DNA of 61,492 bases from a virus: positions 1 through 61,492 of the IMG/VR virus record IMGVR_UViG_3300028786_000001; one strand, given 5' to 3'. A model generated the notes under the pieces. It was not told the DNA's origin. It ran no database searches and worked only from the letters and a program-made list of their open reading frames with translations. Shown in pieces: positions 1 through 900 of this stretch. The number at the start of each line of letters is the position of its first letter. Position 1 is the stretch's first letter. The position numbers were made by a program, and so were the translations under genes.

Positions 1-127
1 TATGGCAACCATAGCAATACGCGCTTGACTTGATATGGATGGCCCCAGCTTCACCATTTCTTCATATGCCGTCATATATTGGAAAGGGAGAATGAGTGAC
101 TTCTTAATGAAGGCTTCACTTGTTAAC
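1..127. repeat. 127-bp exact copy of 61366..61492 (assembly overlap of a circular or terminally redundant genome)
   Basis: Direct base-by-base comparison of window start and end: tatggcaaccatagc...cttgttaac is identical. Confidence 0.95.
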
Positions 128-900
128 GCTTCTAAGGCTAAAGGAAGTGCCGCAGGTGCTTGTTCGATGATATTACGGATATTCCGTAAGAGGGCGAGAT
201 AGCCTAGCTTCTTCTCCTTTAATAGGTTTGTCCATACTGCTTCTTTTTTACCGGCATCTTTACCGGCAGCAGATAACATTGCTTCCCAGGTCTCTTCCTG
301 CTTCAGTTCACCCTTCAGCAATTGCTTTAATGCGCCTGCATTCATTTCATTGGGCTTAGGATGACAGACATTAATAACATCCACCAACTTCACCGATTTA
401 TCATCGGACCGGTATTTAGCCAAGGAATACGGTTTGATCGTATCGAAGGCAACAGCAAAACCTTTCTTCATTGCTACCGGCACCTTGAATTTCTTTTTGT
501 TGCCTTGTTGGGCCTTCAGATAGGAGAAAATCTCCGTCATATCGTCCGGGCGGTAGATCACAGCAGTGAAGAAATCAGCCGCCCATTTGAAGCCGCTGAT
601 GTGTTTGGATAGTTCTGCTGCTGCCGCATGAGTGATAGAGCGCATACCAAAAACCGTCCTGGCATAAATGACAGCCTTTGCTGTAAGTTTCTTATCCGCT
701 TCAGTTCGAAGTGCTGCGATTAAGACAGAAAGCCGCGCGACGGTTTGATCTGCTTTTTCATAGAACTTATCAGTTAAGAAGGATGTGAATAAGATCGTTA
801 CGATCTCTTTAATAGGGCTCATGCTGTGTGCCGATCCCCCGGCTAGATTGCTTGTGTCCGGTTTGAATGCGGATGTGCTTTGTTGATTGAAACGTGACAT
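1..900 (-). CDS. rsr: Ro60/Rsr-like TROVE-domain protein, N-terminal 300 codons (the ORF runs off the left edge and continues at 61365..60775 across the circular junction)
   Basis: ATG at 898-900 on the minus strand with no stop down to base 1. Own translation MSRFNQQSTSAFKPD..FYEKADQTVARL..AVIYARTVFGMRSITHAAAAELSKHI..IYRPDDMTEIFSYL..LGYLALLRNIRNI..ILPFQYMTAYEEM has TROVE-type motifs. The frame is continuous with ORF 60775..61440 through the 127-bp overlap, giving 496 aa in total. Confidence 0.85.
   Translation of the reverse strand, partial: MSRFNQQSTSAFKPDTSNLAGGSAHSMSPIKEIVTILFTSFLTDKFYEKADQTVARLSVLIAALRTEADKKLTAKAVIYARTVFGMRSITHAAAAELSKHISGFKWAADFFTAVIYRPDDMTEIFSYLKAQQGNKKKFKVPVAMKKGFAVAFDTIKPYSLAKYRSDDKSVKLVDVINVCHPKPNEMNAGALKQLLKGELKQEETWEAMLSAAGKDAGKKEAVWTNLLKEKKLGYLALLRNIRNIIEQAPAALPLALEALTSEAFIKKSLILPFQYMTAYEEMVKLGPSISSQARIAMVAI

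Follow-up and report, generated by a model that had tools for sequence, protein, structure and literature searches.

The viral record IMGVR_UViG_3300028786_000001 of IMG/VR, of which positions 1 to 61,492 were analysed here (the window), encodes a Ro60-family protein preceded, on the same strand, by nine Y-RNA-like units and two tRNAs. Profile searches, matches to solved structures and an invariant metal ion-dependent adhesion site (MIDAS) support the identity proposed in a preliminary description of this DNA, namely a phage orthologue of Ro60 with a predicted TROVE ring of HEAT-like repeats, closed by a von Willebrand factor A (vWA) domain that carries the MIDAS. We consider it likely that the locus as a whole is best explained by such a ring acting together with a Y-RNA/tRNA precursor transcribed from one promoter, by read-through into the Ro60 gene, and by tethering of the ring to RNA enzymes of the host.

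The window begins and ends with an exact direct repeat of 127 nt (1-127 = 61366-61492), and no longer terminal repeat is present; removal of one copy leaves a circle of 61,365 bp. Translation of the circularised sequence bore out the open reading frame (ORF) described earlier, which starts on the minus strand at the ATG at 900, crosses base 1 and, still in frame, extends from 61365 to the TAA at 60775-60777, giving 1491 nt and 496 aa. The identical 496-aa gene lies mid-contig in an independent MEGAHIT assembly (ENA ERZ27251811, contig k141_2218700; 61,506 = 61,365 + 141 nt), which is differently permuted and of which 7,491 nt equal the circularised window exactly, with the junction spanned. 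We infer that the surpluses of 127 and 141 nt are k-mer overlaps left by the two assemblers on a circular path, so that the ends of the window are arbitrary and the gene is only seemingly split. The "split" Ro60 gene is an artefact of linearisation. The parts of the gene in the window are as follows, where φRo60 denotes the Ro60 of Thermus phage phiLo.

1..900 (ATG 900-898), minus strand: Ro60 coding sequence, N-terminal 300 codons, most of the predicted TROVE/HEAT-repeat ring (translation, TROVE match and φRo60 alignment)
60775..61365, minus strand: Ro60 coding sequence, C-terminal 196 codons and TAA, with the predicted last ring helices, vWA domain and closing C-terminal helices
61320-60835, minus strand: vWA domain, about aa 316-477
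61366..61492, no strand assigned: duplicate of bases 1-127, the overlap of a circular contig and no biological repeat (exact repeat and second assembly)

The window ends do cut the gene, and its halves are linked within the window by the 127-nt overlap alone, as would be expected if a mis-joined assembly had created the gene or if genome termini interrupted and inactivated it. This reading is essentially refuted by the internal copy in the second assembler's contig, by the 7.5-kb match over the junction, and by a reading frame that is intact and contains 73 positions invariant among 54 relatives.

The protein matches Pfam TROVE (PF05731) with 52.9 bits against a cut-off of 23 (E 4.4e-14), whereas its score of 26.3 bits for vWA_Ro60 (PF25045) falls 1.4 bits short of the cut-off of 27.7. 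All 54 relatives match TROVE, and 41 of the 54 match vWA_Ro60 at E ≤ 0.001; because the score of this protein is itself under the cut-off, its vWA assignment rests on the family matches, the MIDAS residues and the predicted fold. The preliminary description had placed TROVE-like blocks in the N-terminal two-thirds of the protein; the Pfam match itself covers aa 199-291 only, but an alignment to φRo60 spans aa 14-478. The PHROG_850 profile ('RNA-binding protein') matches over nearly its whole length (E 1.4e-42; profile positions 1-470 of 476 aligned to aa 1-485). The solved structure closest in sequence was that of a 'TROVE domain-containing protein' (9L5Y/9KOP, E 1e-25, aa 14-478) that Foldseek names as φRo60. 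Human Ro60, Deinococcus radiodurans Rsr and Xenopus Ro60 matched weakly in the single-sequence search; a profile of the 54 relatives run against the PDB recovered φRo60 at 8.6e-34, Xenopus Ro60 at 2.4e-11, D. radiodurans Rsr at 3e-11 and human Ro60 at 4e-11.

An AlphaFold2 model computed from the alignment of relatives gave a mean predicted local distance difference test score (pLDDT) of 84.5 and a predicted template modelling (TM) score (pTM) of 0.82, with an all-helical N-terminal two-thirds followed by a domain of alternating strands and helices. When the model was compared with the PDB using Foldseek, the top 13 matches were all Ro60, near full length, with TM scores of 0.53-0.77 (φRo60 0.72-0.77, Xenopus Ro60 0.68), and isolated vWA domains ranked after them. 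In a viral structure library the best matches were TROVE/Ro-like proteins of the crAss-like phage cr111_1 and Gordonia phage VanLee. The model thus predicts the closed ring architecture, in line with the HEAT-repeat ring plus vWA domain expected earlier.

The sequence blocks that had been quoted as TROVE-like, together with DVSGSM, are all present, namely AVIYARTVFGMRSITH at aa 76-91, RPDDMTEI at 117-124, LGYLALLRNIRNI at 232-244, ILPFQY at 270-275 and DVSGSM at 323-328, and all five sit on invariant columns of the 54-relative alignment. In the same alignment M1 is nearly invariant and N5 invariant (consensus MSRFN...), which argues that the start codon is right. The MIDAS lies at

61285..61299, minus strand: motif D323-V-S325-G-S327 (DNA read: GATGTATCCGGCTCA), with further ligands T390 and D411

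and none of its five residues (D323, S325, S327, T390 and D411) varies among the 54 relatives. Their counterparts in the alignment to φRo60 are D322, S324, T391 and D416, which coordinate Ca2+ in the φRo60 crystal (PMC12135203). Mutagenesis of φRo60 has shown that eight basic residues contribute to binding of its RNA Yrl2, with mutations of K142 and R178 weakening it most (PMC12135203). Here φRo60 K142 and R178 align with K146 and K182, and K141 and K193 with K145 and K196. Proteins of the Ro60/Rsr group bind Y RNAs on their outer surface and the ends of misfolded RNAs in their central hole; the φRo60 contact residues are only partly conserved here.

Upstream of the gene, the last gene of the next block in the ENA record ends at ~2736, and of the two protein genes that ENA calls in the region 2700-960 none is on the strand of Ro60; the opposite strand carries a 41-aa ORF. 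At curated thresholds Rfam finds tRNA-Trp and tRNA-Gln only in this region. At relaxed thresholds there are four matches to YrlA (RF02553) on the gene's strand, falling in the units that we call U2-U5, with E values from 8e-4 to 0.1. These matches, together with folds, a motif scanner and complementarity, define an array of nine units located 111-1764 nt upstream of Ro60.

1011..2664, minus strand: array of nine Y-RNA-like units (approximate limits)
2664-2553, minus strand: unit U1
2538-2424, minus strand: unit U2
2409-2273, minus strand: unit U3
2258-2136, minus strand: unit U4
2123-1996, minus strand: unit U5
1982-1858, minus strand: unit U6
1843-1741, minus strand: unit U7
1564..1634, minus strand: tRNA-Trp (CCA), inside the array
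1306..1377, minus strand: tRNA-Gln (UUG), inside the array
1151-1091, minus strand: unit U8, a short hairpin
1078-1011, minus strand: unit U9, a short hairpin

All units follow one plan. From the outside in, a terminal helix (NNG-N-GG/CC-CNN) is followed by an internal loop (CUAU in its 5' strand, CUUUUU in its 3' strand), by a helix of 7-9 bp whose sequence is specific to each unit, by a conserved GUUACUUC and finally by a variable module. Most adjacent units are separated by A/U-rich linkers of ~12 nt (11-14 nt across U1-U7 and U8-U9), and the tRNA/spacer block separates U7 from U8. The modules of U2-U6 contain a near-consensus T-arm followed by a D-arm, the permuted order typical of YrlA, with T-loops of the GGUUCGA(A/U)YCC type and D-arms of the AGCUCAGUUGGUAGAGC type, closed as in YrlA by a stem from the 5' and 3' ends. 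U1 and U7-U9 have no tRNA-like module and resemble YrlB-type hairpins.

With the strands located by their conserved flanks, the inner helix forms 7-9 contiguous pairs within a unit versus ~4 between strands of different units, and the outer helix shows five compensatory triplets (CAG/CUG, CAA/UUG, GAG/CUC, CGG/CCG, AAG/CUU). This covariation among paralogues shows that both helices are real. The sites at which Y RNAs bind Ro60 are built in the same way, from a stem, an internal loop and a second stem that the 5' and 3' ends form together (PMC4201824, PMC12135203).

Further observations concern the array region itself. A 180-aa ORF (1993-2535, minus strand) overlaps the four YrlA-like matches, is absent from the ENA calls and was taken as spurious. 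An Rfam tRNA match of 22.9 bits (2057-2188, minus strand) bridges U4 and U5, combining the D-arm-like part of one unit with the T-arm-like part of the next; it is the type of tandem false positive about which Chen et al. (2014) warned, in reverse. The spacers flanking the tRNAs match neither the unit plan nor any Rfam family on the minus strand; they could be additional structured RNAs or serve in processing.

1150-1305, minus strand: spacer downstream of tRNA-Gln, fold of -53.8 kcal/mol, z -4.3 versus shuffles
1378-1563, minus strand: spacer between the tRNAs, z -2.7
1635-1736, minus strand: spacer upstream of tRNA-Trp, z -1.4

To compare related loci we used a scanner that combines the motif with pairing and takes the opposite strand as its control. 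When units trimmed to a 'mini' form were aligned with MAFFT (A2), the 3' helix strands fell out of register, so no covariance model was built from this alignment. As the scanner picks the best pairing, its pairing is partly circular; strand asymmetry and the matrices of cognate versus non-cognate strands anchored on conserved flanks are checks free of this circularity. In the window the scanner returned nine units on the gene's strand, none of them outside the array, versus two on the other strand. Across 85 loci encoding relatives, which are mainly metagenome-assembled genomes (MAGs) of Bacteroidota and Verrucomicrobiota and phage contigs, it returned 139 units on the Ro60 strand versus 7 on the opposite one. 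Of these loci, 29 have no unit, 19 have one, 11 two, 10 three, 12 four and 4 five, and three further loci that were scanned have at most two each. No other locus among the ~88 compared has an array as large as the nine units described here, in a clade where arrays of three to five are common. Interleaved tRNAs are frequent in the related arrays.

Two observations on these relatives concern tRNAs. In a Candidatus Sericytochromatia MAG (locus L019, 1505-2933), five Y-type units are crowded together with nine tRNA genes upstream of Ro60, which extends mixed Y-RNA/tRNA arrays beyond phages and Bacteroidota. In addition, some tRNA calls, annotated or made by ARAGORN, lie wholly within a Y-type closing stem: a tRNA-Lys in the crAss-like phage csAssE-Sib (L088, 3797-3900), a tRNA-Ile(UAU) in L006 (2358-2459) and an odd tRNA in L019 (1792-1898). 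Some 'phage tRNAs' beside Ro60 genes may therefore be Y-RNA modules.

The window also holds genes for the large terminase, portal, major head protein, DNA polymerase, primase-helicase, exonuclease and endolysin; the terminase, portal, major head, polymerase, primase-helicase and endolysin genes support a phage origin. The Ro60 gene occupies the distal end of the leftward early region in this complete 61,365-bp phage genome, and megablast of window positions 1-8000 against 50,697 phage records found no match, i.e., no relative at the DNA level. Promoters of the TTTG/TAnnTTTG type, together with scarce Shine-Dalgarno (SD) motifs and A-rich leaders, are typical of Bacteroidota. In this genome the early-region promoter motif is of that type, SD-like motifs precede 2 of 47 genes, leaders are 44% A, and the nearest cellular relatives of the Ro60 protein are mostly Bacteroidota. 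The promoter motif, the rarity of SD-like motifs and the cellular relatives together indicate that the host is probably a member of this phylum.

The elements that bear on expression of the locus are the following.

2703..2734, minus strand: Bacteroidota-type promoter TTTG-N20-TACTTTTG, ~40 nt upstream of U1
931..966, minus strand: intrinsic terminator between the array and the Ro60 ATG, with an 11-bp stem (966→940), a 5-nt loop and T6, dG -19.6 kcal/mol
60736..60769, no strand assigned: bidirectional terminator with a 15-bp stem, common to Ro60 and the convergent endolysin gene, dG -24.5 kcal/mol
60124-60717, plus strand: endolysin gene
3720-4181, minus strand: extracytoplasmic function (ECF)-like sigma factor (Sigma70_r2 + r4)
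4777-5277, minus strand: ECF-like sigma factor (Sigma70_r2 + r4)

Sites of the form TTTG-N17-21-TAnnTTTG occur eight times in the window versus 1.8 expected, and seven of the eight fall in the early region 2703-10120, where five match TTTGACA-N15-17-TAnnTTTG perfectly (four with N16, one with N17). This cluster is divergent around 9586/9608 and looks like an early control region. The promoter at 2734→2703 is the sole recognisable one upstream of Ro60. The lack of a promoter motif of this type directly before the Ro60 ATG had been noted before, and widening the spacing to N17-21 still brought up no such site there. Both terminators described at the two sides of the gene are present, at shifted limits (966→940 plus the T-run upstream; 60736-60769 downstream), and the stem of the upstream one ends 39 nt before the ATG. 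Closest relatives share this arrangement: L004, L009, L010 and L011 have a strict hairpin and T-run 23-34 nt before the ATG, and L005 an imperfect hairpin, read by eye. Of the 18 related loci listed, seven have a single canonical promoter upstream of the Ro60 gene; it is located 66-301 nt ahead of the first Y unit, never between array and ATG. Two similar sequences on the minus strand, AATCAATACACACAATAT (at 913) and AACCAATACACATATTAA (at 60728), follow the two terminators that bracket Ro60; the copy at 60728 overlaps the endolysin stop codon, and the pair could be a relic of cassette insertion or due to chance.

The simplest reading of these data is that Ro60 would be expressed by terminator read-through from the array transcript, as had been surmised. 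It gains support from the canonical promoter of the array, from an interval before the ATG that has none above background, and from the seven loci of the same layout; such comparative support falls short of proof. In the mechanism that we favour, the host-type promoter at 2734→2703 would drive a non-coding transcript of ~1.75 kb with the nine Y-RNA-like units and the two tRNAs, and this precursor would be cleaved into single Y RNAs. A minority of transcripts passing the terminator would supply the Ro60 mRNA, and because only that minority passes, Ro60 would be less abundant than its RNAs. The outer surface of Ro60 would bind the conserved stem, internal loop and stem of each Y RNA. Tethering of the ring to host RNA enzymes would fall to the variable modules, those of U2-U6 being tRNA-like and those of U8-U9 hairpins, and RNA decay and quality control in the infected host would thereby be diverted or damped. 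The best precedent for the tethered enzyme is PNPase, as with D. radiodurans Rsr and φRo60; naming an effector enzyme here is a guess.

Several observations weigh against this mechanism. The terminator before the gene is strong, so read-through could be negligible, and the two ECF-like sigma factors may use promoters that are not recognisable. A scan of 30 phage ORFs brought up neither an exoribonuclease nor an RNA ligase. Four of the eight φRo60 RNA-contact positions are non-basic here (P141, D167, V173, N177). The NCBIfam Rsr equivalog NF041674 scores 15.8 bits against a cut-off of 900, so naming the protein Rsr by equivalog is unwarranted; given the distance from this model, it is a Ro60-family member of a clade closer to φRo60 than to classical Rsr. 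On the RNA side, the best YrlA score is 29.7 bits against a gathering threshold of 69, with relatives reaching at most 43.5 bits. YrlA RNAs carry the motif GNCGAAN0-1G near their 5' end (PMC4201824), and every base of CGAA matters for binding to φRo60 (PMC12135203); the units have GGCUAU(N)G or UUGCUAU at this place. Relatives carry GGCGAU, GGCAAU and GUAGCGAA, so that CUAU is a drifted variant of the CGAA motif, and this drift keeps the array RNAs below the Rfam threshold.

The main alternative to read-through is a separate promoter for Ro60, unrecognised so far, for instance one served by a phage ECF-like sigma factor, that would overlap or directly follow the terminator; array and protein would then be regulated separately, e.g., with the RNAs early and the protein later. 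We regard this as possible but clearly the less probable arrangement. The strong terminator 39 nt before the ATG would suit it, as would the two sigma factor genes in the early region (3720-4181 and 4777-5277), which imply phage-specific middle or late promoters. A candidate of the sigma-70 type, CTGACA-N16-TATAAT (952→925), does overlap the terminator and matches at 11 of 12 positions, but matches of this quality are at chance level (3 in the genome versus 2.8 in shuffles). Against the phage early consensus TTTGACA-N16-TAnnTTTG, the same site scores 9/13, as do ~425 other sites (421 in shuffles), and it was rejected. No 8-9-mer of the leader recurs before other genes in a pattern that would suggest a shared promoter. 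Furthermore, the gap from terminator to ATG is 23-39 nt in the five loci with strong hairpins, which leaves little room for a promoter, and in the seven related loci the sole canonical promoter precedes the array.

Other alternatives accept the Ro60 homologue and differ in what its RNAs would do. The array RNAs might act mainly alone, offering tRNA-like decoys or substrates to tRNA enzymes of the host or to tRNA-targeting defence nucleases, with Ro60 merely stabilising them or handling other misfolded RNAs through its central hole. Such a role would fit the near-consensus T-arm and D-arm sequences of U2-U6, the two genuine tRNAs inside the array, the ARAGORN tRNA calls inside Y stems of relatives, and the fact that YrlA RNAs are substrates of tRNA enzymes (PMC4201824). 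We nevertheless think it improbable, as all nine units, including the four without a tRNA-like module, keep the stem, loop and stem that define Ro60 binding sites, the unit motif co-occurs with the Ro60 clade on the gene's strand (139 versus 7), and PADLOC gave no defence-system match and hence no link to defence. It is also tempting to speculate, although the odds are well against it, that one early promoter yields nine different Y RNAs and two tRNAs, that leaky termination yields less Ro60, and that every module brings the ring to its own partner among the RNA enzymes of the host, for example PNPase or another exoribonuclease, RNase P or RNase Z, an enzyme of tRNA modification, or a defence nuclease that targets tRNAs. 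On this view Ro60 would act as a programmable hub in the takeover of host RNA metabolism or in counter-defence, not as a modulator of PNPase as single partner, and the 'UACUUC-type' Y RNAs of this Ro60 clade would form a subfamily that is not yet in Rfam.

A compact 61-kb genome, the largest Y-RNA set among ~88 loci and a layout of single promoter, terminator and gene make this locus a good experimental system. Two questions become directly testable with it: do the Y modules differ in the host factors that they recruit, and is the ratio of RNA to protein set by read-through of the terminator? The whole Ro60 clade in Bacteroidota, Verrucomicrobiota and their phages carries Y-like RNAs under the Rfam YrlA threshold, which is useful for annotation. 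Elsewhere in the genome, two genes are unusual phage cargo:

58514-58966, plus strand: stand-alone response-regulator receiver domain protein, among the late genes
5784-6305, minus strand: circularly permuted YpsA (SLOG) protein, in the early region

Ro60 orthologues have been known in mycobacteriophages since 2003. In 2014, YrlA-like RNAs were reported beside Ro60 in 254 bacteria and 22 phages, at most 4 kb away and on the same strand (PMC4201824), and Ro-like proteins are mentioned in a Listeria phage study and in a survey of jumbo phages (PMC12282133, PMC7824862). The closest characterised system is φRo60 of Thermus phage phiLo (structure 2025), which binds two upstream Yrl RNAs and, together with these, the host PNPase and lowers PNPase activity in vitro, with no PNPase found in the phiLo genome (PMC12135203); it is the one phage Ro60 that has been studied biochemically. 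Like it, the protein described here is encoded by a phage, has about 500 aa, a predicted TROVE ring and vWA domain and the same MIDAS ligands, and φRo60 is its best match both in sequence (E 1e-25) and in fold (TM 0.72-0.77). Y-like RNAs lie directly upstream on the same strand in both, and no PNPase was found among the 30 ORFs scanned here. In contrast, identity is ~25%, the hosts are Thermus versus a probable mesophilic Bacteroidota, the genomes measure 178 versus 61 kb, and two Yrl RNAs with CGAA stand against nine Y units plus two tRNAs with CUAU. Here, moreover, a strong terminator separates the RNAs from the gene and half of the mapped RNA-contact residues are changed.

The bacterial Rsr systems, i.e., the D. 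radiodurans Rsr/Yrn1/PNPase complex RYPER and Rsr/YrlA/YrlB of Salmonella Typhimurium and Mycobacterium smegmatis (PMC4201824), share the same fold (2NVO) and the mixture of tRNA-like and simple-hairpin Y RNAs. In M. smegmatis and D. radiodurans, rsr is preceded on its own strand by the Y RNAs, which come from one processed precursor that in D. radiodurans includes a tRNA (PMC4201824), an organisation similar to the one proposed here in its distance (≤4 kb), strand and common precursor. They differ in an identity of ~16%, in the Rsr equivalog and YrlA thresholds that this locus does not reach, in having two to four small RNAs per locus versus nine here, and in rtcBA neighbours, none of which were seen here. 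Metazoan Ro60 (1YVP, 9NEN) likewise combines a ring with a vWA fold (TM ~0.68) and binds a stem, loop and stem built from the 5' and 3' ends of Y RNAs, but shares 15-17% identity, is ~40 residues longer and is served by separate Pol III genes for Y RNAs instead of an array.

Among phages, PHROG_850 collects TROVE/Ro-like proteins of mycobacteriophages and of Gordonia, crAss-like Bacteroides, Vibrio and Xanthomonas phages. The protein matches this profile at full length, with strong fold matches to cr111_1 and Gordonia phage VanLee, and in the crAss-like csAssE-Sib the 'Ro sixty-related protein' is likewise preceded by two Y-stem units. A relative is encoded by 98 of the 50,697 records in the phage collection, 20 of them from Bacteroides phages. 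All deposited phage relatives are below 30% identity to this protein, except that of one 635-kb uncultured phage (48%). The protein is thus a new and rather divergent addition to a phage gene family that is already known. The combination of a phage Ro60 with Y RNAs has been described before, and the protein itself adds no new principle; what distinguishes the locus is the large and diverse array, the drifted Y-RNA motif and the terminator placed between RNAs and gene, a feature that extends to its closest relatives.

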